The notes beneath the pieces are model-generated. The model made no database searches and was not told where the DNA came from. It worked only from the letters and a program-made list of their open reading frames with translations. Below are positions 1-63,780 of a stretch of DNA of 64,000 nt, piece after piece. How positions within the stretch are numbered: the stretch's first letter is position 1; each line of letters opens with the position of its first letter. The translations under genes were made by a program, and so were the position numbers. The stretch is taken from contig OX597834.1 of assembly GCA_951406725.2 (NCBI GenBank), forward strand, positions 30,256,001-30,320,000, in the 5' to 3' direction. The DNA is from Octopus vulgaris (Eukaryota).

Positions 1-2103
1 TGCTTTATTTTTAAAGTAGCAGCTAAAATCTTCAATCCAAAATGGAAAATGGTCAAGTTTACGGAACATAATAATAATAATAATAATAATTTTTTACTAA
101 TATAAAGCACAAGGCTAATAATTTTCATGTGAAAGGATTAGTCTATACGAGCAACCCCAGCACTTGACTTCTACTTTATTTTGTCAATTGCAATAGGATG
201 GAAGTGAAGATGCATAGCCTACTCATGACTGCAAGATCATGGTCTCAATTCCTGGACCAGGTGGTGCCTTGAGGTTTTGGGCAAAACACTTCATTTTACA
301 TTGGTCCACGTCACTCAGCTGTAAACAAGCGACCCTGTGATGGAGCGGTGTCCCATTCTGGAAGGGGAGGTGATCTCAGTCAGCAGTATCCAGGGTTTGA
401 TGACGGTGACAGTGACGATGATGATGATGATGATGAAAGGGTGAAAGGCACAGTTGATTTCAGCAAGGTTTGATCTCAGAAACCTCACGAGCTTGAAGAA
501 ATATTCCAAAGCAACTTTTGTTTTCTTTTTTAGTATTTCTTGTAGCTCTTTACATTCTGAGTTCCAATCCCACTGAAGTTATCTTTTCAGGGCCGATAAA
601 ATAAAGTACCAGTCAAGTACTGCTGGCCTTGTGCCTAAATTAGACTCTAAGAACATGACAGTAATAACTAAAAAGAATAAGACAACTGATTCATCTCTAA
701 AATTTCTCTTGGATAATTAAAATGACTTTGTAATTCCTAAAATAAAAATAATAATAATAATAAACAAAAACAGAAAATAAAGGAAATAGATTTTAGTTTT
801 AGACAAACACAAAATCAACAGCAATCCTGAGAACACACAGAAAGTGATTAATTCAACTGGAAAAAAAAAAAAAAAAACTGACAAATAAAATAATTGAAAG
901 TTATAAAGTCACAGATTAATTATGAAATTGAAATACTGAGTAGCAGTTGATTTGATCTGATGATGTGAGTGATCGTATTGATCCGATACAATAGTGTATG
1001 TTAGGCATCCAAACTATTCACAATCTTGGCTGTTGTTTTAAGAGAAGCCATCTTCTCAACCAAACATTATTTCACAAAAACGAAAAACAAAAAAAAAACA
1101 AAACAAAAAATCTTTTCTTGCAACAAATTGTTGTGTCTTGTCAGAGGTTAATCAATGGTGTTTCACAACAGTCTGTCCCCTAATAAACAATATTGTTTCT
1201 TTGTGCTGGACAGGTTGACAAATGAACTAACCATCACCCAAAAGACTTGGCTGAAAAAACTCTGGTTTCCCCATTTTCCAAAAAAATATAAAATAGTAAA
1301 AGCTATAATCACACACACACACTGCAGGCTTCTGCACAGTTTCTGTCTGCTGAACTCCAGTCACAAAGAAATTGTTGCAAAGTGAATTACTTAACCATAC
1401 AACATGTCTGTATCCATTTCCTATAAGGAGCAGAAGTACACACAATACATGTAGATGTCTAAATGCTTATATATATATATAATATAGATAGATAAACATG
1501 TGTATGTGTATATATATATATATATATATATCATCATCATCATCATCATTGTAATTTAACATCCACTTTCCATGGTGGTGTGGGTTGGACAGTTTGACAG
1601 GAGCTGACCAGGCAGAAAACCACACCAGACTCCTGTGGATTTTCTGGTTGAATACCCTTCCAAATATCACCCATTCTGGAGAGAGGACTGAGTACTTTTT
1701 ACATGGTACGAGCACAAGTGAGGTCAGTTTTGGCAGGGTTTTTACAGCTGGATGCCCTTCCAAACACCAACCACTTTATAAGGTGGACTGGGTGCTTTTT
1801 ACATGGCAGGGTCACTAGGTAACTTGCAAGACAAAGATCCTGTGAGAGGGGAAGGGGACACTAGATGAGATGATCTTGTGACAGATGATGAAAGGTTAGA
1901 GTGTGACAGAGAGACAGAAACAGGAGTCTTGCTGTAGGGGAAGTACGTGGTTACCCGGCCAAGAGATCAAGAACGAGGACAGAAACAGGTAACATAGCCA
2001 TTAAATAATGTAAGACACATATCAGGTGGAGGTCATTATAAGGTGGGCAAACAAGGTACGATGAGGTGATGTGACTATCCAGATATATAAATGTGTGTGT
2101 GTG

Positions 2104-2148
<45 letters not shown>

Positions 2149-4017
2149 CTATATATATATATATATATACGCGGAGTGGTTGGCGTTAGGAAGGGCATCC
2201 AGCTGTAGAAACACTGCCAGATCAGACTGGAACCTGGTGCAGCCCCTGGCTTCCCAGACCCTAGTCGAACCGTCCAACCTGTGCTAGTGCGGAAAACGGA
2301 CGTTAAACGATGATGATGATGATATATATATATATACCACATCACCAGTTCTGCTTACCAAAAGTGGCCCACACATACATACACACACACACATATATAT
2401 ATATGCACAGTTATATAATACACACACACATACATTCATGAGAGTGTGTAGCAGAAAACACATGCTCTGCAAAAGGTAGTTTATTTTGTCTCCATACGAG
2501 ACATCATCAACATATATTTGATATTTGTATAAATTCAGAAATGACACAACTCACTCAACCTCCACATCCAGTCATTTGCCCCTGAATGTCTGAATGTCTG
2601 TGTGCTTGTTTGCATGCTGTGAATTTCAAACCCAGAATCTGGTTCAGTGGAGAAGTCACATGTGGATCTTCCTGCCCATCTTTTGAGGTGGGGACCTACA
2701 TTATATCTGTATGTATATATATATTATATACATACAGAAGACCTGTTGAGGCAAGTGAAAATCAAAATCAAAATCGATCAACATCAATGGAAATTGCAGC
2801 TGTGATACCAGTGCCAGTGGTACGTAAGAGAACCATCCAATCGTGGCCGTTACCAGCCTCGCCTGGCCCCTGTGCCGGTGGCATGTAAAAAGCACCATCC
2901 GATCGTGGCCGTTTGCCACCACGACTGGCACGTAAAAAGCACTCACTACACTCACAGAGTGGCTGGCGTTAGGAAGGGCATCCAGCCGTAGAAACATTGC
3001 CAGATCAGACTGGGCCTGGTGCAGCCTTCTGGCTTCCCAGACCCCAGTTGAACCATCCAACCTATGCTAGCATGGAAAGCAGATGCTAAACGATTATGAT
3101 GATGATGATGATGATGATGATATACAGTAATTGCAATCTCAAAGCAATCGTTTTTATCACAACAAGCTTTTGATCCATCTATTCATCCATCCATTCTCTC
3201 AGCCCACTATTCCTGGAGGAAGGGTTGTAGGGGTAGAGCCCCCAGGCACCACCTCTGTAAGCCCTATCAGAAGCAAGTGTCATTAGCTTTAGTTTTAGAT
3301 TTTAATTGAAACACAAACACCTTAGCACATGCAATGTCAGGCAGGTTTGTATCAAGATGGTTTTGAAGGGAGGATAAAATAAGAAGTTACAGGGTTTGTT
3401 TCAACCATATATAGATGGGTGGCCCCTTAGATGACATTTAGTCTGAAAACAGCTTCAGCCAAGAATTGAAACAATACCGAGGACTTGACTTATCAAGAAC
3501 TTGCTTCCTGTTCTATGGCACCCTTTGTTTAGAATGAATCATAACAGAACGAAGGATGCTGGAAACGAAATGAGTGTCGATATGTTTTGTGCATAAGGTT
3601 TCCATTGTGGATATTTTAAGGTGGAAAATAACTTTAGAAAGGCTTTCACTTCAGAAGGTATTCATTAGTGGTGGTAATAATTAACATTTTGTTAGAAAAC
3701 AAAAGCCAAATCGTTTTAAGGAAAATAGCAGAACAAAGGTTAAAAAGTGTCTCTCATTCTCAGGTTCAGCTGCCCTTTATATATTTGTTTATTATTTTCT
3801 TTTCAGATGGAAAAAAAAAAGGAACAAAAAAAAAAAACCAAAACAAGAAGTGGGAAGGAATAAGAAAAAAACCAAAAGCAAACGAAGAAAATTTCTAAAC
3901 GGAACCTCAAGGAACAAGAAAGAATTCAATATAAACTTTCCAATTCAAAATTCATACTATTATTTCGCACACCTTTAAAAAACCCAGAGAAAGCAACTTT
4001 CATAGAAAATAAATATA

Positions 4018-4424
4018 TATTTCTTTACTACTCACAAGGGGCTAAACACAGAGAGGACAAACAAGGACAGACAAACGGATTAAGTCGATTATATCAACCC
4101 CAGTGCATAACTGGTACTTATTTAATCGACCCCGAAAGGATGAAAGGCAAAGACGACCTCGGCGGAATTTGAACTCAGAACGTAGCGGTAGACGAAATAC
4201 CTATTTCTTTACTACCCACAAGGGGCTAAACACAGAGGGGACAAACAAGGACAGACAAACGGATTAAGTCGATTATATCAACCCCAGTGCGTAACTGGTA
4301 CTTATTTAATCGACCCCGAAAGGATGAAAGGCAAAGTCGACCTCGGCGGAATTTGAACTCAGAACGTAACGGCAGACGAAATACAGCTACGCATTCCGCC
4401 CGGCGTGCTAACGATTCTGCTAGC
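4018..4424 (-). mobile_element. SINE family B (gagctggcagaa...ttctgagttcaaattccgccgagg...gccccttgtggg.agtaaagaaata), here with about 183 bp tandemly duplicated
   Basis: Other copies at about 22790-23012, 29041-29258, 29405-29638, 31251-31468, 43186-43413, and older ones at 47090-47290, 51665-51935, 61755-62350. Confidence 0.9.
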
Positions 4425-7400
4425 TAACACACATTTCTCTCTTTCTCTCTCTTTGTGTGTGTGTGTGTGTGTAGCAATAGAGGTATAACTACTACAGATA
4501 AGTTTAGAGCTCCACAGATTATCCTAATCTAGTCGGCTTCCAGTACAGTGATTAAGTAACTACTAAGTATTACTGGTTATGATATCCAGGGAAAATTTTG
4601 TTGGAGGGATTGTGGTAAACACAAATCTGCATCATTTCTTCCCCTACATATGTTTCACCATTGTGGTTGTTCGGAACCCTGCATTGGTAATTCAAAGTGT
4701 ATTTGGATGCTTCACGAGTGAACTTCAAGGGGAATACTTTATTGCATTGCATTAGACAACTAATGTGTGTGTGTGAAACTATCTATCTTTGCACACAATG
4801 AGCTTTGTTCAGTTTCTGTCAACCAAATCATCCAGGTACTATAGCAGATGACACCTGTGCCCAAGATGCTGAGCAGGGGGACTGAACTCAAAACCCTGAG
4901 GTTGCAAAGCAAGCTTCTTAACTACACACCGATACCTGGGCCTATACACACATCAGGCCGAGAGGAAAACTCTTTAGTGTTGTCCGACAGATAACCCAGC
5001 CTCTGTTGCAATGGTGCTGTGCCAAAATGTCCATAGTGCTGTCTGCAGAATCACTGGCTCCGGGAAGGATGTCCAGCCATAGAAAACAAGACCTTAATTG
5101 AGACATTGTACCACAATGCAGCCTTGTATCTTGCCCGATTCTGTCAAACAACCCAATCTCTGCCTGCATAGAAAGCAAAAGTAAAATGATGACGATGACG
5201 ATGTGGCTCAGTCATGGCTGTGTGGTTAGGACATTTGCTTCCCAACCAAATGGCTTCATGTTCAGTCCCACTGCATGGTACCTTGGGAAAGTGTCTTCTA
5301 CTACAGCCCTAGGCTGACAAAACCTTCTAAGTAGGTTTGGTTGACAGAATCTGGAATTAGATGGGTGTGTGTGTGTGGGTGGATGGATGTGTGTGTATGT
5401 GTGTTATGCTTCTGTCTCCTTGTCTTAACATCATATGATGGCTATAAACAAGCAATACAGCCAAGCAATGCTGTTTACTTCTAGTCTTCCATGAAAGACA
5501 TGTCTGGTCCTGAGCATATACTTCCTTGTCGGGAAACAGTTGAGGGTCGGTGACAGGGAGTGCATCCAGCTGTAGAAAATTTACAAGCTCCAGTCCAACC
5601 CACGCAAGCATGGGAAATTGGACATAATGATAATGATGATGTTTATGATAACGATATATATCAAATTCTCTAAAACCTCCAAAGAAAAACAAACTGTTTA
5701 TTTATCTAGGAGAGGTCACCAATAAAACCTCATTTCAAGGCTATTTAATACTTTGTGACTATTGCTTTGGCTCACTGGGCTGGCTGGTATCTGGTTACCC
5801 ACGTACACAACTTAAAGCACTGAAGAAAGAAAGAAATATAACAATACGTAAAATAGTTAAACGTGGAGATGCGTGGCTTAGGGGCGAGGGTGTTGCATTC
5901 AGGATTGTAAGATTGTGGTTTTAATTCCTGGACCAGGCAATGTGTTGCGTTTTTGAGAAAAACACCTCATTTCACATTGCTCCGGTCCACTCAGCTGGCA
6001 AAAACGAGTCATCCTGTAATGGGCTGGTGTCTCATCCAGGTGGGGGGACTATATATATATGCCACAGAATCTGGGAAACCAGCCATATAAGTGTGGACCT
6101 TGCATTATCTTTTTGAAAATAGTGTGGGTATGGCTTTATGGTTAGGCAGCTTGCTTTCCAACCACAAGATTTTGGGTTCAGTCCCTCTGTACAGCCACCT
6201 GAGCAAGTGTGTTGGGATACAGTTCTGAGATGACAAATGGCTGAGTCAATTTGGTAAACAGAAACTGTGTGAAGTGGTTGGTATTAGGAAGGACCTCAGG
6301 CCACAGGAACCATGCCAAAGCAGACTCTGGAGCATGATGCAGTTCTTGGACCCAACGAGTCCTGCCAAACCATCCAACTCATATCAGTGTGGAACGTGGA
6401 CATTAATTGATATGATGATGATGATGATGATGATAATGATGATGTGTGTCGTTGTGCTTGTTTGCGCCTCACTGACGCTTAACAAATGGTGTTGGTTTAT
6501 TTGCATCCCTGAAACACAGCGGTTTGGCAAAAGGGGGCTGGCAGAATATGTATCAGGCTTGAAAGCATAATAAAAAAAAAAAGAAAAAAGAAGAAAATAT
6601 TGGCATCGATTTGTTCTATTAAAAACTTGAGGCAGTGCTCCAGCATGGCTGTAAGTAAAAGATAAAAGAACCATACACGTTTGCAGAAATATTTACTTTA
6701 CACTGAATTATTGTTATTATTATTATTATTATTATTACTTGATATTAATGTTTAAAGAGTTGTTAATATTATTAGGGAAGTGTCAGAGAATAAACTACAC
6801 AGAAGTATTTTTAGTTAAGGCTCTTCCCTTTCTGTTCAAATCCCACAAGGTCGACCCTGTCTTTCCTCGTTTTGGAGTTTGATAAAATGAAGTTATGTGA
6901 ATTAGAAGAAAAGAGAGATTCCTTTGCTGACCAAATAAAGTAGAAATGCAAATGGTAGCTGTTATTGTACTGAAGCTGACCCCTGCTCTTCACCCTGCAA
7001 AATATGTAGGCCTTCTAAGACCAGTGTTAGGGGCGCATTTTAGGTATTCAAGTCAGTCATGTGAGATTGATAAATCAAGGATCAAAATGGGACAGAAATT
7101 TCAGACTGAGGGAATATATTGGGAACCTAAAATAATATCTTCATGAAAAATATATATAACAGACAGAGCCCTACATATATAAGGTGCAGAGGTGGCTGTG
7201 TGGTAAGAAGCTTACTTCCCAACCGCATGGTTCCACTGGTTGGCACCTTAAGCAAGTGTCTTCTACCATAAACTCTTGATTGACCAAGACTTGTGAGAGG
7301 ATTTGGTACAGGAAAACTGAAAGAAGCTTGTCATATATTATGTGTGTGTGTCCTTGTGTTTGTTCCTCCACCAGCGCTTGAGAACTGGTATTGGTTTGTT

Positions 7401-7940
7401 TACATCCCCATAACTTAATGATTCAACAAAAGAGACTGATAAAACAAGTACCAGGCTTTGTTTGACTAAACATTCAAGGCAATGCTCCAGCATGGCCACA
7501 GTGCAATGACTGAAACAAGTAAAAAATATATATATATGCACACACGTCTTCTACTGTGGCCCAGAGGATAACCAAGCCCTTGTCAGTGGATTTGGAAGAT
7601 GGAAAATGAAAGTAACCCATCATGTATGTATGTGTGTGTGTGTGTGTGCGTGCATGTGTGTGTGTGTGTGTGTATGTGTGTGTGTGTGTTTACATTTATG
7701 CTTTTCTGGTAACTGTTGAAGTTGTCCTTTCCCTTGTCTGCTAGCTTTAGACCTTTAAAGATGTGTGCGGAATAAGTTATCCGTTTGCTTGGAAAAAGCA
7801 TCTGGCTGTAAAACTAATGCCTTGATAATCTAATCGTTTAATCCACGCTAACAGTGAAAAACAGACATAAAGAATCCACATTATGTATGGAATGACCTAA
7901 TGTATGTATGTATATTATATATATATATATATATATATCT

Positions 7941-8102
7941 ATCATCATCATCATCATCATCATCATTTAGCGTCCGTTTTCCATGCTAGCATGGGTTGGA
8001 TGGTTTAACTGGGGTCCGGCTTCACAGACCCCAGTTAAACCGTCCAACCCATGCTAGCATGGAAAACGGACGCTAAATGATAATGATGATGATGATGATG
8101 AT
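7941..8102. repeat. Near-perfect inverted repeat: 76-bp arms, 10-nt loop
   Basis: Arms 7941-8016 and 8027-8102 with two mismatches; derived from the family C 3' end. Confidence 0.95.
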
Positions 8103-9921
8103 ATATATATATATAGACATGCATACTGATATCAAAAAGTGTCTGAATGAAATGAATGAAAATTAAACCAATTCCTTAAAAACCAGACAAGGTAAATAAC
8201 AACTGATAAAAAACTAAAAAAAATTTAATTAAAATCCTGCTTAATCTATTTTCTCAGTGTAAAATCTACAGGACAAGATTCTATTAACAGAATACAATTT
8301 TTCATATTTATGGACACAAACTTGTAAGTATGGTCTTTTGATTTGGCAATCTCTCTCTCTCTCTCCCTCCATGTTCTCTCTCTTTCTCACTCACACACAT
8401 CCACACGCAACCTTTGTATGAAATCTATAATGAAACAGAAGTGTTAAATAAAAGCAATTTATGAAAGTTGACTGCAAGACAGCATTCAAGCCATGGTGCC
8501 AAATATTTGGTGATTGGAGAGAATCGTGAAAGTAATTCTTCAAGGGCCAGAAAACTTTAAACAGCAAAGATAAACCATTAGGACAGAAAAATAGTCCAAC
8601 TAAATAAAAAAAACAAGTTTCGAAATTTAATACAAAAAAAAGTAACAAAAATAATTTTTAAAAAAAAGGCAGCTGAAACTGACTCGTCACGCCAAAATGG
8701 ATGCAAATGTGTGAATTGTGTGTGAAAAACTCATTCTTCAAAAACCAAACAAACATGAAGCTCACAAGAGAAGTGACAAACTTGGATATTAGAAGACGTT
8801 TATGTAGAACTCAAGACCAAAACTGATTCCATTGATATAACAATACCTAATATTGAGAAGGTTGGTTACTCGGTATTAGACAAGATTCCACAACATTTCT
8901 GTTTCTGCTATATTTTCCGGCATTATAAGACAACTTTTAGAGAGTAAAATTTACAGCCAAAACAAGTAGGTCGACATATAGAACCAAGACAACTTTGGAG
9001 GGCCAAAATTTCTATGTGAAATGCAGCAGAATTTTGAAAGATAGAGATGATGTTCAAATGTTTACACTTAAATACTATGTCGGCTTGTATGCCGGAAAAT
9101 AGGGTAAATATCTGAGGCAAGTTTTTTTTATTTAATATTTTAGAATTTTGTAGGTAAGATTGCAAATTTCTTGGAAAACTTTATTTCCAGAAATGAAACA
9201 TATTTTACAAGCATCTCTCTCATGCTACGAAAGTGTTGCCTTCCAAAATAATCTTGCCATGATATAAAATTCCATAAATCAAAATCTACTTTTCCATTGG
9301 ATGTGGAAGTTAACGAGAAATATGTTCTATGTTATGGAATTTGGCGTTACAGCAAGATTTTCCAGAACACAACACTTTTGAAACATGGGGAGCTGCAAGT
9401 AAAATACATCAACACTATGTTTCAATCAACTTCATCTCCCATTATCATCATCAGGCATTTTATTATTATCACAAGTCTATTAACTCTGTCTAATCCCCTC
9501 TCTCCATATTCTCTCTGATAGTCAAATTCTTGCACCTTGAAGGTACACCCTTACACTCCATCAACACCATCTCTTTTCTCTCCTCCCAGGTAGGGGTCAC
9601 CATGTATTTCCTCTAAAATAAAACACTTGTTTCTCTCCTCTTAACACTTGGCCCAAAGCCACCTCCCAGAATACAATAGTCCCACTCAGTTGAGGGGTTC
9701 CCTGTCTTGTGAGATATTTAGGGACCTCACTAGTGCCAATGCCACATAAAAAGTACCTAGCACAATCAGTGCTTTGGTCGGTGTTAGGAAGAAGGGAATC
9801 CAGCTGTAGAAACCATGCCAAAGTAGACACAGGAGCTTGATGCAGTTCTCTGGCCCATCGGATCTTATCAAACAGCCCAACCCTGCCAGTATGGAAGATG
9901 GACATTAAATGATAACGATGA

Positions 9922-9968
<47 letters not shown>

Positions 9969-10048
9969 ATGTAGGATAAAATTTTTTTCGAAAAAAAAAT
10001 TTTTTATCAACGGCCGGTATATTAAAAAATACCTTTAAAGGTTAAAAT

Positions 10049-10196
10049 TATAAACAACTTATAAATAAGGGCAAAGGAAAAAATTTCTAATGCCAAATAT
10101 GCTGAAAATTGGACATATTGTCCATTACCATATAATTATATGGCATATTCGGCATTAGAAATTTTTTCGTTTGCCCTTATTTATAAGTTGTTTATA
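10049..10196. repeat. Inverted repeat: 54-bp arms, 40-nt loop
   Basis: Arms 10049-10102 and 10143-10196 with two mismatches; inside a TA-flanked insert. Confidence 0.92.
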
Positions 10197-10844
10197 TATA
10201 TATGCGGGTGGCACGTAAAAAGCACCCACTACACTCATGGAGTGGTTGGCGTTAGGAAGGGCATCCAGCCGTAGAAACACTGCCAGATCAGACTGGGCCT
10301 GGTGCAGCCTTCTGGCTTCACAGACCCCAGTTGAACCGTCCAACCCATGCGAACATGGAAAGCGGATGCTAAAATGATGATGATGATGATGATGATATAT
10401 ATATATACACACACATAGATATATGTGTGTATTTATGGTGGTCCCAGACTGAATTTAAATTATAAACCTTTATTTCCAAACTAAGAGAAAGGTTACTGAT
10501 ACAAGTATACGACAATCCTTAGTTAGAAATAACAACTTCAGAGGCTGCATTCAAACTTGGAGAATAAAACATTTGATGATGATTAGAGATCAAAACCAAC
10601 TGAAACATAGTGAAGTTATCAATATTGAGGACAAAAAAATATTTTGTCTTCTAAGACGAGAAGAAATTGAAAACTTTAGAATAATCTAATATCTGTCTCC
10701 ATTATCCAAATTTATCAAACCTTCCATTGCTTGTTTGTTTTTTTTTTGTTGTTGTCTGGTTTTGGTTGTGGTTGTTATTGTCATTGTGGTTGTTGTTATT
10801 ATTATTATTATTTATTATTATTATGATTATTTCTGCTTCATTCT

Positions 10845-11360
10845 TTAACATTCATTACAGACCTTACTATGTGGAAGTTGCAACTTTAAGTTTTTAGCAT
10901 TCTTTTTGTCTACAATAGACTGCTGTACTTCCTGCCCGTCAGTATTGCTGTCGGCGGGGCATGCTTGTGGATCGCTCTCGCTGGCTTCCGAGCTGTTACA
11001 AGGAACGGTGGGACACGTCTCCTTGGGAACATTACACTGATTTTTTTGTACGCCAACTCGAAGATCGGCAGTGTTTTTGCACTGAGCGACGGCGACTGTC
11101 GGAGCTGACATTCTCGCCTGCCTTTTGGCATGTGCTTTTGTCATGGTCAGTGTTGTTGATGTAGTTGTTGTTGTTTTGGTGTTGGTGTGGTTGAAATGCA
11201 TGGGGTTCTTGTTGCTAGGTAAGGGAATGGCAGTCATTGGGCATTTAGTTTGGAATGGTGAGGGTGTTGTGTCGAGACGAGTATTCCGAGATGGACTTAG
11301 ATACCCCTTACGTCGGAGGATTGCTTTAAACAATTTCGCTTCGTTCCTGTGGATGGGTGG
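10845..11360 (-). CDS. Candidate alternative terminal PKN exon (PPIHRNEAKLFKAILRRKGYLSP...KVCNEC*), 171 aa
   Basis: Non-repetitive 516-nt stop-free frame in phase 0 after a pyrimidine-rich acceptor (tttccatttcag). It starts with an E-x-x-L-F-x-x-I alphaG-like pattern. AATAAA lies on the minus strand at 10811-10816 and 10469-10474. Confidence 0.65.
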   Translation of the reverse strand, partial: PPIHRNEAKLFKAILRRKGYLSPSRNTRLDTTPSPFQTKCPMTAIPLPSNKNPMHFNHTNTKTTTTTSTTLTMTKAHAKRQARMSAPTVAVAQCKNTADLRVGVQKNQCNVPKETCPTVPCNSSEASESDPQACPADSNTDGQEVQQSIVDKKNAKNLKLQLPHSKVCNEC

Positions 11361-14300
11361 CTGAAATGGAAATTACTGGAAATGAAAAGAAAAAATAAAC
11401 ACTAATAACGCAACAGAGTTATTAATTGGCAAATTAACTACTGAGATTTTTAATCTAATTTAGATCAGATATTATTTAATTAGCACCAATTTGAGATGGA
11501 GAAGAGCAACAGGAATTACACCAACTAATTAGGTAACATAGGTGTCCATGAAGTTACACGTATCCTCCAGCGAGCTTGTTGTTTCTTTTCTGCTCCAAAT
11601 TGCTAAGGATTATAAAAATCTTTATCAGGAAGACAGACGTAACATAGATGTATTGTTGAAAAGCCGGAAGCTGAAGCTTTTCCGTCCAAGAAAAAAAAAT
11701 CCCTTTATAAATATATTGCATTAAAAAAACACAATATTAAGACACAGACATGGCTGTGCGGTAAGAAGCTTGCTTCCAAGCCTCATGGTTCTACGTTCAA
11801 TCCCACTGCATGGCATCTTAGGCATGTGTCTTCTGCTATAACCTCAGGCTGACCAAAGCCTTGGGAGTGGATTTGGTAGCTGGAAAATGAAAGAAGCTCA
11901 TTGTGTGTGTGTATGTGTGTGCACATGCGGATGTCTGTTCCCCACACTGCTTGACAACTGGTCCCGGTAACATAGTGATTTGGCGAAAGAATAAGCACCT
12001 AGCTAAAAATAAATAAGCGTTGGGATCGATGTGCGTGACTAAAAAAATTCGGGACAGTGCACCAGCATGACCACAGTCCAATGACAGAAATTAGTAAAAG
12101 AGAAAAGATATACTTCAGAACTAATTGTCTTAAAAACACAGAAAAGGGATTTCTCCCAAATGATAAACTGCAACTTGTAGTTTTTTTACAATACAAAAAC
12201 ATTATGTTATACAGACAAAGGTACTCCAGAGATGGTTCTACTGCGTAATTAAAATTTTATCTAACGAATTATAATGTCTAATATTAGAGTTATAAGTGTC
12301 TAAGATAAATCAACAAATATGCCGTGGTTCTACTTTGTTATGTACTAAACGGCTGTTAGGTGGAACGGTTAATCTATGAATAATGAAATACAGCATTTCC
12401 AAGATGAAAGCCAAGCAAGAGCTGTGAGGTTTTGTGCATTAGCAATTTGAAACCTGCTAATCTCTTTTTGGTGATGCACAATTTGAATATATCTCAATAT
12501 GAAACATGCTCAGAGAGAGAGAGAGCGAGAGAGAGAGAGAATGACAGACAGACAGATCAGGAAACTAGATATTGTTTCCTATGGCTGGGCTAAGCTGAAA
12601 TGAGCTGAGCCATGCAAGAACAGGAAGATAATTCTAGATAGTTTGAAGAGCAGAATAAATACCATGAGATAGAAAAATAGAAGAGAATTCTGATAGAAGA
12701 ATTTTCTGGGAAGAATTTTCCATTGAAGAGAGAAAAGAAAGAAAACATTTGTTGTCATCTTCTCTTCCCAATGGAATGTTTCCCTCATAAACATTGAACA
12801 AAATAAGATTCCATGGGCTAAATTTGTGAACTATATATTGCTGGTAAAGACAATAAGCAGTTTCCTTTAATTTTACTGTTTTATAACAGAAAAAAAAAAA
12901 AACCCCAAAAATTCTTGGAGCACCAAAGAGTTTTTATACATTTTACTAATTCCCCCTTAAGTGTTTTATCCAAAGAAAAAGAAATTCCAAGTGGAAAAAG
13001 GAAGAGGGGCCAGATTGATATGCACTAAACAGTTTAAAAAATAAAAAGGGCAACATGTATAAGAAAGGGGATCTCAAGCAAGAGAGAGTTGTTGGAAGAG
13101 AGGATTGGGAACAGTATTTGATGCAGGGTTCAAAAGGGACAAATGAAACACTGTTGAAAGGGAGCAGTGTCAAAATAAATTTGGATACTTTATAGCTTTA
13201 CTGAACTAAACAAAACCCCTTCACATTCCAAGCTAAACCTTTATGTCACCATATTTTTGATGTGATATACTGTCTTTGTTTTAATTCATTTTGAAAATAC
13301 TGAAGATGACAGTAAAATAACTCAGCCATTAGAAAAGTTGATGTTTGGAAGTTTCCATGGTAGGTTGTAGTTCAGATCACTTCAAAAAACAGGGGGTTTC
13401 TGTCATAGAACCAAGGGCAGTCTTTGGCAAAAGAGTCAAATACCTTAAGGTTTAATTTTACCTTTTGATCCATCAGAAATTATTAAGACAAGGAATATCA
13501 GTGATGCGCAGGGGAGGGAGGGGGTACAGGTGCAATCAGTAATCTGCGTGGCCTAGATGGAGCTTAACCCAGTGTGCACGGTATATAAGCGATTGAAATA
13601 CCCCCTCTCCTATGTGAATGGGATGTTGGGTCTGTTGCAGGGTTAACCACGTCCCACTTAATACTGGGACCCACTCACAGCTGAGTGGACAGCAAATTAA
13701 TAATGCCAATGTTTACACGGATGGATTGTTCCACCAACTTATAAAGCAATCGACTATGAAAGTGGTGAGTTAACAAGGGAGTCTGAATGCAGCTACCTGA
13801 TCTGCAAGAAACAACAGCCAAATATCTCTCAGACTATACCATACTGTGTAAAACGAAGGACGCTAGGGATTTTTGTAGTGTGGGGTACACCTGGGTCTCA
13901 GGTCTGTCATGAGCCCTAGCACTTGTAAAGCCAGAGCTTGTTTATGATTGAGACCACAAAGACTTCCTCTAGAACACCGGTCCATTGTAGGGTTAACTTT
14001 CCAGCTATTGTTCCACCCCATTCACAGCTGAGGGGGGGGGGGCGCACACGAAATATGAAGAGTTTTGCTCAAGAACACAACACACCACCCACTTCAGGAT
14101 TTGAAAGCACAATCTTACAATCGTTAGTGCAACACCTTAGCCACTGGGCCATACACTTTCACTGATCAATGAAAAGAAAAAAAAAAAACCTGGATGTGAC
14201 TGACCTCCTAAAGATAAACTGATTAGCAAATTAATTTCACTAAAAGTTCCCATCTCTGTTTCACAATTTGCCTCTTCAATTACAATCAGTCAACCATGTG

Positions 14301-19759: not shown

Positions 19760-20125
<366 letters not shown>

Positions 20126-22521: not shown

Positions 22522-22890
<369 letters not shown>

Positions 22891-48989: not shown

Positions 48990-49070
48990 CTTTTATATCC
49001 TCTCCTAACAACTGTTTAAACAATAGGCTGATCTGTTCGGCTCCATCAATTTCAATCGATGCAGTGGAAC
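48990..49070 (-). CDS. Candidate 81-nt symmetric phase-1 exon (STASIEIDGAEQISLLFKQLLGEDIK)
   Basis: Acceptor aattttag with upstream ctaat, donor aag|gtaaat; open only in the phase-1 frame. Confidence 0.45.
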
Positions 49071-58345: not shown

Positions 58346-58807
58346 TGATAGATTATTAAAGAGGTGAATAGACATTCAAAACATTAGGGGACTGAGACTT
58401 AGGAAATATCAGAGCAGTGGGAAGGAAAGCTCATAGGAGGAAGAAGAGACAAAAATAGAGAAGGTAAAAAAAATATGTCAGTAAAAGTTAGTTATCAATG
58501 TGCAAACACTTAATTATAATTACTTGCTAAAATGCAAAGTCTTAATAATTAGTTATTAAAATGCAAATATATTCTCTCACGCTCTCTCAGTCTCTTACAT
58601 AATCAATGACTTCATCTATGATTTTATTAGTTTGTTAAATTATCATTGCAAGAAGCACGATAGGGTTTAGTGGTAATTTCCTGCTGTTAATTAAAGCTAT
58701 GGTTTTTATAGTACAGTGTTATTATGTTATATAATATGTATATATATTTAATAGGCTAAAGGATCTCATGCTAAGTGAAGGACATCTCCCAGGACGTGAA
58801 TACTCAC

Positions 58808-58974
58808 TTGACAAATTTTCATCTTTTATACTATACGTTTTACTATTGCTTTTGCCTGTCTTGCCACCACGTAAGAGACTACGACTCTCACCTGGGCTGG
58901 AAAACATAAGCTGTAAAGAATCTCTTCTCGTACGTCCAGGAATATCTTCCAGAAGGTCCTGACATCCAACCAGT
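58808..58974 (-). CDS. PKN: PKN exon, C2 strand 1 end and long loop (LVGCQDLLEDIPGR...KDENLS)
   Basis: 167 nt, acceptor ttactttgtag, donor gtgagt, phase 2 to 1. Confidence 0.95.
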
Positions 58975-59641
58975 CTACAAAGTAAAAAAAAAAAAAAAAA
59001 AATAACCCAAATAAATAAATAACAGAATTCATTTGCAGGCAACCAGAAGAAGAAAGAAATGTGCCCACCATCCCTACTTCTCATCATCATCGTTTAACGT
59101 CCGTTTTCCATGCTAGCATGGGTTGGACGGTTCAACTGGCATCTGGGAAGCCAGAAGGCTACACCAGGCCCAGTCTAATCTGGCGATGTTTCTACGGCTG
59201 GATGCCCTTCCTAACGCCAACCATTCCGTGAGTGTAGTGGGTGCTTTTTACGTGCCAGACGGGGCTGGCGAACGGCCTCGGTCAGATGGTGCTTTTTACG
59301 TGCCAATAATAATTCTTTCTTTTATAGGCACAAGGTCTGAAATTTTGAGCAAGGGACTGGTCAATTACATCAACCCCAGTGCTCAACTACTGCTCATTTC
59401 ATTGACCCCAAAGAGATGAAAGGCAAATTGACCTTGTCAGAATTTGAACTCAAAATGTAAAGATAGGTGAAATATCAGACTTTGAGGGAAAAAAGAAAAA
59501 ACAAAAAAACAAAAAAAATTATTGGGGTTAGTTTGTTCAACTAAAAAAAAAAAAGAAAACTAATGCGATGCCCCAGCATGGCCACAGTCCAATGACTGAA
59601 ACAAGTAAAGACAAAGGATAATAATCAAATAAAAGACTGAC

Positions 59642-61305: not shown

Positions 61306-63780
61306 CTAGAAGAATGAAATTCAAAGGTTTTGAAATTAGTTTTTTCCCCCATTTTTTGTCTTTGGATATGAATAGACATTTGACTGTGTATAAGCATTTT
61401 TACGGACCCAACCCCCACACACACACATGATGATAATGAATGAGGATCTATATATCATTTATTATTTCACTTAGTCATCGTGATACTAGTAACCTGCAGC
61501 TAAAACTCAATACACAAATGTGTATTGAGTGCCAGTCAAGTACAGAGTAGCAATAACAAATTAAAATAACACACACACACACACACATTGAATAAAATAT
61601 GGACAGGCAGTTTCAATGCATAAAAACATTTATACAAAAGAAAGACCAAAAACATTGTATTTTCTGCCATACAAGTTGAATTTTTCAGAGCAAAATTTAC
61701 ATAAAAAAAGGGTAAGTTGACATTACACACCAAAATGATTTTGAAGGACCATAAATTACATCGACCCCAGTGTTTCACTGGTAATTAATTTATCAACCCC
61801 GAAAGGATGAAAGGCAAAATCAACCTTGGTGGAATTTGAACTAGGAAGGTAGTGATGGGCGAAATACCATTGAATATTTCATCTAGCATGCCAATGATTC
61901 TGCCTTATTGAGTAAATAACAAGCCATTCAGTTATAGGGACCAGGTCTGAAATTGTTTAGGCGTGTGTGGGAAGGGGTAGTCACTGACCCCAGTACTTAA
62001 CTGATACTTGTTTTATCAGTTCTGAAGGGGATGAAAGGCAAAAATCAACCTTGGCAGGATTTGAACTCACAGCATAAGGAGGCAGAAGAAATGCTCAACC
62101 TTCCAACAACTCAGCCATCTTGCCACCACTTTTTGCTTCAAATTCTGACACAAGGCCAGCAACTTTAGGAGGATGGTTCTCCTCAATTAAACTAACCCCC
62201 AGCACTTGACTGATGCTTCATGTTTTACAACTCCGAAACAGACGAAAGGCAAAGTTGACCCCGATGGGATTTGAACTCAAAACATAAAGGACCAGAAGAT
62301 ATGCCACTAAGCACTTTTCTCTAGCATTTTAATCATTCTGCCAGCTTGCTGATAATAACAATTTCTTTTATTTGTTGCAGGGACATCAGATGAAGAGGGC
62401 ATTACAAGAATGCTTTAAGTGTGTTGCTAATCCTCAACTACTGTTTCCAAGCAAGCTAATATTTCTCCATGGCAGACTGGAAACAAACAAGATCACTTCT
62501 ATGATGGTTTCCAACCATCACATGATGTCTAGACAAGGGCACACACAGACACACACAACAGGCTTTTTTCGGTTTGTGTCTACCAAATCCATTCACAAGG
62601 TTTTGGTCAGCCCTTGGCTATTAAAGTAGAAGACACTTGCCCTAAGGGCTGCACAGTGGGACTGAACCCAAGACAACATGCTTCTTGACCATGCTGCAAT
62701 GCTTGTGTGGTAAGAAGCTTGCTTCCCAACCACATGGTTCTGGGTGCAGTCCCACTGCGTAGCACCTTCTACTATAGCCTCAAGTCGACCAAAGCCTTGT
62801 GAGTGGATTTGGTAGATGGAGACTGAAAGAAGCCTGTCATATATAAACATATGTATATGTGTCTGTGTTTGTCATCCTACCATCACTTGACAACTGATGT
62901 TGGTGTGTTTGCGTCTCCCGTAACTTAGCAGTTCAGCAAAGGACACTGATTGGGGTCAATTTGTTTGATTAAAGGCAGTGCTCCAACATGGCCACAGTCA
63001 GATGACTGGAACAGGCAAAAGAATATATATAGTTATAATAAATATTTAATACACACACACACACACACATTCTTTATTCTTTTATTCTTTTACTTGTTTC
63101 AGTCATTTGACTGCGGCCATGCTGGAGCACCGCCTTTAGTCGAGCAAATCGACCCCAGGACTTATTCTTTGTAAGCCCAGTACTTATTCTATCGGTCTCT
63201 TTTGCTGAACCACTAGGTGATGGGGACGTAAACACACCAGCATCGGTTGTCAAGCAATGCTAGGGGGACAAACACAGACATACACACACACATACATATG
63301 ATATACATACGACAGGCTTCTTTCAGTTTCCGTCTACCAAATCCACTCACAAGGTATTGGTCGGCCCGAGGCTATAGCAGTAGACACTTGCCCAAGATGC
63401 CACGCAGTGGGACTGAACCCGGAACTGTGTGGTTGGTTAGCAAGCTACTTACCACACAGCCACTCCTAAATAAATGTATGTATTTCTAAACATTTAATTT
63501 TCTGTAAAATATTAAACAAACACACAAACGGAAAAAGAGAAAGAAAACTCAAACAATAGATGCACGATGTTTAAACAAAAATAACTGGTTATAAAGCCTG
63601 ACGTAAAATATGTTTTGCTAATAAAATGTTAACTTAACGAAGTAGAAATTGATAGAAGATGACAGAGAGAAAAAGGAAAAGAAAAAGAAGGAAAGGAAGA
63701 TAAGATGGATGTTAAACAGGTTCTGCAAGAAAACATTTCATAGCGCATTATTTTGTGGTTTAAGCTTCATCATATGCACC

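Follow-up and report, generated by a model that had tools for sequence, protein, structure and literature searches.

A probable minor, unannotated internal exon in the kinase-coding part of the PKN gene of Octopus vulgaris

The window considered here is a stretch of 64,000 nucleotides from the genome of Octopus vulgaris (G000:C21:30256001-30320000). It carries on its minus strand a PKN gene, identified by a 60-residue exon at 22546-22725 with 100% identity to O. vulgaris proteins named serine/threonine-protein kinase N2, and the mapped coding part of isoform P0134 consists of 18 stretches reaching from position 61306 to some 3.2 kb beyond the left edge of the window. The protein is built as a member of the PKN/PRK group: HR1 repeats and an AGC kinase domain (PF02185, PF00069 and PF00433 on P0004/P0005) are followed by a last exon (...VSNFDEEF...FQDFSF, on L009) that encodes a C-terminal extension with an NFD motif and a hydrophobic motif with an acidic mimic, as these motifs are defined for PKN in sections of a review (PMC7925014). 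A Pfam Pkinase_C match lies at G000:C21:30252858-30252983. HR1 repeats, kinase, NFD and hydrophobic motif are common to human PKN2 (4crs), to which the octopus kinase aligns without gaps. The parts of the gene around the stretch of interest are as follows:

19835..20054, minus strand: upstream constitutive kinase exon, from the catalytic loop to alphaF, ending MLVGE with a phase 0 donor; contigs of the runs X10 and X15, described below, end exactly at 19835.
10863..11360, minus strand: candidate unannotated internal exon, 498 nt (166 codons), phase 0-0, reading PPIHRNEAKLF...LQLPHSK; based on contigs, simulated overhangs, open frame and GC content.
1..10862, minus strand: the part inside the window of the intron after the candidate exon; the whole intron is 11,323 nt and ends outside the window at the SPFPGDDEEEVF exon.
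G000:C21:30255539-30255432 (L009:9539-9432), minus strand, outside the window: canonical 108-nt exon SPFPGDDEEEVF...AIMRR, the likely downstream partner.
G000:C21:30254785-30252843, minus strand, outside the window: three further canonical exons with the NFD and hydrophobic motif FQDFSF.

The stretch first drew attention as a unique open reading frame of 171-175 codons, and so it is: the frame runs on the minus strand from stop to stop at 11372-10848 (175 codons, 171 when counted from 11360) and DNA and protein searches of the genome find no further copy of it, apart from a short ACA-rich stretch. It sits in a 20,295-nt intron, 8,474 nt past the MLVGE exon, which does end in phase 0 at 19835 as first described, and 11,323 nt ahead of the SPFPG exon. 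The preliminary description found no canonical exon after MLVGE and proposed that the frame was an alternative terminal exon, removing the end of the C-lobe and the AGC tail. There is indeed no SPFPGDDEEEVF exon within the window. Its absence, however, is an effect of the window edge: four canonical exons (SPFPGDDEEEVF to FQDFSF) lie to the left, the first beginning only 462 bases outside. The claim of a tail-less kinase arose from this edge.

Evidence for splicing comes from assembled contigs. Among 24 runs listed, 13 were guessed to be RNA; 11 of those contained 0.39-0.64 of the words, and four of the 11 (X7, X10, X15 and X20; four studies, two organism labels) were aligned. All counts below refer to these four, out of a list that also includes DNA-type or unlabelled runs of organisms A-D. 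They are taken as RNA because their contigs break at exon borders. Splice partners were deduced from overhang lengths, junction letters not being displayed, and splice models were simulated as 31-mer unitigs (the word length being taken from the tool description). The alignments of all four runs continue up to 10863 and stop there, short of the stop codon of the ORF. X10 has a 556-nt contig covering 11360-10863, with 30 loose letters before and 28 after, and a main PKN contig that ends at 19835; it is the one run of the four in which both exon ends lie within one contig. In X15, a contig of 525 nt begins at 11362 and has 28 loose letters after the exon and three gap letters, and the main contig again ends at 19835. 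The contig of X7 (629 nt, 11463-10863) also has 28 loose letters after the exon, and here the main contig overhangs 19835 by 28, as when both enter the same next exon. X20 gave two fragments, with 10 loose letters after 10863, and an unbroken main contig.

A cassette exon present together with the canonical form simulates as 556/30/28/0, identical to X10. When a second path into the acceptor is added, either from the intron or from a neighboring acceptor at 11375, the result is 528/2/28/0, which after subtraction of the three gap letters is the 525 of X15; the 11375 acceptor could be this second path. An upstream-extended form joined to the SPFPG exon simulates 28 and 28, like X7 (with the 5' end taken from the data). 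Since the simulated overhangs match X10, X15 and X7, the exon can be delimited as 11360-10863, 498 nt, phase 0-0, with the donor AAG/GT, and these three runs, from three studies and under two organism labels, have the same borders. Acceptor 11375 alone gives lengths that do not fit X10, and joins to any of the three later canonical exons simulate 557/29, a misfit with 556/30/28. The reading of this stretch as a spliced PKN exon with an acceptor at 11360 is supported by the contig geometry of X10. The further suggestion that it might be an internal exon through a donor at 10868 was right as to the internal position, but the donor is 10863/10862; use of 10868 would shift the frame and simulates 553. 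(A contig piece at 2412-2681 has no splice borders.)

The contig geometry, then, points to splicing from 19835 to 11360 and from 10863 to the SPFPG exon, and cassette splicing of 11360-10863 is probable. A skipped form exists: all 24 named octopod isoforms skip the exon, and the main contigs of X7 and X20 continue past 19835. The ORF is probably a real, unannotated and minor internal exon of PKN, which would be included in a minority of transcripts, inside the intron following the alphaF exon. Its parts are:

11361..11400, minus strand: acceptor region; two AGs, separated by 15 nt, precede 11360 and 11375.
11316..11360, minus strand: 5' part of the exon, similar to the beginning of the canonical alphaF-alphaG exon (25 of 45 bases); predicted helix at residues 6-17, block pLDDT 84.
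10863..11315, minus strand: about 150 codons rich in Thr, Pro, Lys, Ala and Asn, predicted to be disordered by composition and pLDDT (mostly <55), apart from a weak hairpin of two strands at residues 93-110.
10857..10865, minus strand: donor AAG/GTCTGT at 10863/10862, where the alignments of all four runs end.
10845..10862, minus strand: final five codons of the genomic ORF with its stop; in the four aligned runs this is intron sequence, outside the exon.

The exon has the properties of a symmetric cassette, with AG/GT borders, a length that is a multiple of three and no stops in the upstream frame. At 11360 the border is CAG/CCA, which keeps the frame open and is the one supported by RNA in X10. 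The AG at 11375 has a stronger pyrimidine tract, and its first codon is TAA; splicing there would truncate the kinase right after MLVGE. Both acceptors lie in a near-duplicated CATTT(C)CAG motif (11361-11385). A poison exon was considered and rejected: from 11360 the frame stays open, and a premature stop would need the 11375 acceptor or the 10868 donor, neither of which fits the lengths in X10. A consensus GTAAGG occurs inside the exon at 11306-11314, 49 nt past the acceptor and near the end of the likeness to the alphaG exon; the contigs of the four aligned runs give no sign of its use. GC content is 48% in the exon and only 36% and 28% in the two flanking stretches of 500 nt.

Where did the exon come from? 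The preliminary description had noted an alphaG-like 5' end in which acidic residues are replaced by basic ones. When the two exons are anchored at their acceptors, the 25/45 match of the first 45 nt to the canonical alphaG exon (with one codon gap) is reached by 0/3000 dinucleotide shuffles and 1/5000 codon shuffles and, of 14204 AG-anchored positions in 264 kb, by four others, although the test length of 45-48 nt was chosen after the alignment had been viewed. Among the 17 exon starts of the gene, that of the alphaG exon is the best match. The peptide score of 12 is above those of all 127 other acceptor-like open peptides and is reached by 14/5000 shuffles. Unanchored BLASTP finds no likeness between the two exons, and the likeness ends after codon 15, with none beyond. 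Net charge is +5 over 19 residues in the new exon and -8 over 20 in the alphaG exon, and both exons are phase 0-0. The likeness is weak, but when anchored it exceeds that of shuffled sequences while the charge is reversed, and an old partial duplication is therefore likely: as read from sequence comparison, the 5' 45 nt probably arose by tandem duplication of the alphaG exon, and the exon would later have been extended to a new donor. In the introns flanking the two exons, the only shared DNA is microsatellites. A second anchored match, at 8760, contains a stop and lacks peptide likeness. Origin from a transposon was rejected on the single-copy status of the exon; the nearest dispersed repeat is at 11615-11737, 250 nt upstream, and has 13 further matches (71-88% identity). 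A source in some other kinase of the octopus was likewise rejected, the first 40 residues matching only themselves in the genome.

What would inclusion do to the kinase? The insertion comes after residue 919 of a 1049-residue isoform, giving 1215 residues, and the predicted product retains the catalytic motifs, the NFD motif and the hydrophobic motif. In the model of the PKN kinase, the site is a loop between helix 217-236 and helix 247-255 (local pLDDT about 49), which correspond to alphaF and alphaG in general kinase nomenclature; given the low local confidence, the position is to be read together with the gap-free alignment to human PKN2 (4crs). Thus, 166 residues would be added to the alphaF-alphaG loop, while alphaG to alphaI and the AGC tail would be retained. 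Modeled alone by single-sequence AlphaFold2, the insert forms one helix (6-17) and is otherwise a mostly disordered chain. The proposal is that the insert isoform still folds and keeps its hydrophobic motif for docking of PDK1, and that the first helix of the insert, a basic look-alike of the acidic alphaG, would compete for the alphaG seat or sit beside it. The result would be a PKN with lowered activity or altered substrate docking and a disordered tether, not a tail-less dead kinase. This whole reading, a minor in-frame cassette isoform whose basic alphaG look-alike and tether change activity or docking while the tail stays intact, is on balance likely, though not comfortably so. Large inserts in the catalytic domain are found in Greatwall/MASTL, Cdc7 and the receptor tyrosine kinases, at other loops; there too, as proposed here, a long and poorly structured loop is accommodated in a working kinase fold. 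Those inserts are constitutive, however, while that of octopus PKN is optional and starts with an alphaG look-alike.

Is the insert of any use to the animal? A selected regulatory role is close to evenly balanced, and perhaps slightly doubtful. The most serious alternative is that the splicing is as described but the exon is young, cryptic and tolerated, without a selected role, its product rare or unstable. Depth is low in three of the four runs: exon over main contig is 7.2/241 in X10, 12.6/185 in X7 and 2/42.8 for the X20 fragments (such ratios are hints only), and unspliced intron pieces in X7 and X10 have depths of 2-9, so that the exon is near the intron background. The donor is non-consensus and a stop-giving acceptor competes with the one at 11360; the exon is missing from all fetched annotations, and protein searches found no homologues. 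On the other hand, depth in X15 is 17.2 as against 16.8 in the main contig, and the borders are identical in three studies. The frame is kept under the second organism label (B), where the contig is a net three letters shorter and has three private substitutions, two silent and one Ala-to-Pro, too few for dN/dS. Only 1/2000 dinucleotide shuffles are open (mean of 6.0 stops), and the other two frames carry 6 and 10 stops, a statistic that is partly ascertained, the ORF having been picked for its length. Codon use is like that of the gene's own exons, to a degree reached by 7/1000 shuffles (730 training codons). A cryptic exon is unlikely, though far from negligible. The opposite extreme, a switchable docking surface in which a charge-reversed alphaG duplicate on a tether is spliced under regulation, is dominant in some tissue (for which the depth in X15 may be cited) and is perhaps A-to-I edited at 11131, is a shade less likely still. 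At 11131 the transcript strand of the assembly has A, but all four runs, under both organism labels, read G, which changes CAT to CGT (His77Arg in the insert); the difference may stem from A-to-I recoding, or the assembled animal may carry a private allele.

The exon could also, or mainly, open the coding part of a short transcript driven by a promoter within the intron, encoding a protein of 213-255 residues with a novel N-terminus, alphaG to alphaI and the PIF-bearing tail. Such a product could bind PDK1 without kinase activity, since the hydrophobic motif of PKN binds the PIF pocket of PDK1 (sections of PMC7925014). The X7 contig enters from the intron at 11463, 103 nt before the acceptor, and is spliced at 10863 without a 5' junction; in X15 another path enters the acceptor and the exon is as deep as the upstream contig; and there are four in-frame ATGs. 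Against this, X10 has 5' splice geometry, a partly spliced pre-mRNA or the 11375 acceptor accounts for X7 and X15, contigs cannot reveal a transcript start, and an ATG at 11244, upstream of the first in-frame one, is out of frame. All told, an intronic promoter is improbable. The absent 5' junction of X7 would be accounted for if the assembler prunes short weak branches, as it may.

Mutually exclusive use of the new exon and the canonical alphaG exon, with the former joined to LLRRNPDK, would yield a dead kinase without most of alphaH (which the SPFPGDDEEEVF exon also encodes) that keeps its tail. The 5' likeness and the shared 0-0 phase would suit such a swap, and with a retained-intron path its simulated lengths are the 556/30/28 of X10. 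Without this extra path, however, the overhang is 29, not 28; the extra path is required in three of three runs, with a second one in X7, and the two exons differ greatly in length (498 and 108 nt). The swap is distinctly improbable. As for the alternative terminal exon ending at the stop at 10845-10847, which would remove the end of the C-lobe and the AGC tail, the genomic stop does lie five codons past the donor, and an unspliced transcript would read into it; but the simulated 3' overhang is 463, dropping to 0 if the cassette form is also present, while 28 loose letters were observed at 10863 in three runs and 10 in the fourth, and this reading was rejected, read-through to the stop requiring 0 or several hundred loose letters. 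The poly(A) signals said to follow the frame carry no weight, the nearest AATAAA (10816) lying inside an AAT microsatellite and such hexamers occurring about twice per kb on the minus strand. Contigs drop rare variants, which leaves room for a rare terminal form, but the idea is very improbable.

Taking the exon, then, as a minor in-frame cassette, one may ask what it resembles. In JNK, the F-helix together with the loop after it is encoded by duplicated exons whose versions differ in basic residues and have been associated with substrate selection (10.1101/119891; PMC9741552), and MAPK8 and MAPK14 appear among the tandem-duplicated mutually exclusive exon events in a section of PMC8373072. 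As in octopus PKN, the duplicated exon of MAPK8 (JNK1) and MAPK14 lies in the kinase C-lobe near alphaF. Those pairs, however, are equal-sized, clearly homologous, ancient and exclusive, whereas only about 45 of 498 nt of the octopus exon resemble its neighbor, homologues were not found outside the two organism labels aligned, and the two exons are likely included together, as the 28-letter overhang favors. The two octopus exons are neither of similar length (498 vs 108 nt) nor the same structural element, no equivalent of alphaH being predicted in the insert. By analogy, the octopus exon is probably most like the JNK exons in its working, but differs from them in length and probably in exclusivity. 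PRKCB (PKC beta I/II) is an AGC kinase diversified by a duplicated terminal exon in its C-terminal part (section of PMC8373072), but its exons swap the C-terminal arm, while the octopus exon is internal and leaves the tail unchanged.

If functional, the exon would represent an unannotated means of tuning a Rho-effector kinase through an optional insert in the alphaF-alphaG loop, whose length is invariant among the PKN proteins fetched, and a snapshot of an exon duplicate becoming a cassette exon rather than one of a mutually exclusive pair. If not, a long octopus intron contains one more cryptic exon, and the gene model is to be corrected. None of the 24 isoforms named for O. vulgaris, O. sinensis, O. 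bimaculoides and Argonauta contains the insert (the largest cluster, of 17 members, being represented by 15), and its 8-mers occur in 0/142 fetched proteins. No homologues were found among 733 longer and 77 near-length protein candidates, and neither HMMER against 1.84 billion representatives nor the ESM Atlas gave a match; Pfam gave no significant match (two at E 0.58 and 0.94), and PDB sequences one chance match (E 3.6). These collections are without this species' own exon, so the blanks say little about conservation. The review PMC7925014 contains no word beginning "splic", and among literature titles from a collection with few subscription journals there was no report of a cephalopod PKN isoform, nor anything further on an acidic patch of alphaG.

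Among 78 fetched proteins with the alphaF motif, 76 pass directly from GE into SPFPG, and the two exceptions look like intron read-through. P0003 (an Ascaris model) and P0115 (an unnamed fragment) have V after MLVGE, as in read-through of an intron, and this continuation suggests, from sequence, that the intron position after MLVGE is old. Elsewhere in the gene, 58806-58985 and 48991-49068 are further optional exons or extensions, in a C2-like region, that vary among annotated isoforms of O. sinensis and O. vulgaris. On a different contig, G000:C28:6658734-9956176 holds ten Pkinase_C matches, eight of them equal at 33.8 bits, in open frames of 183-252 residues, as if an AGC-type kinase had recently expanded there in tandem.
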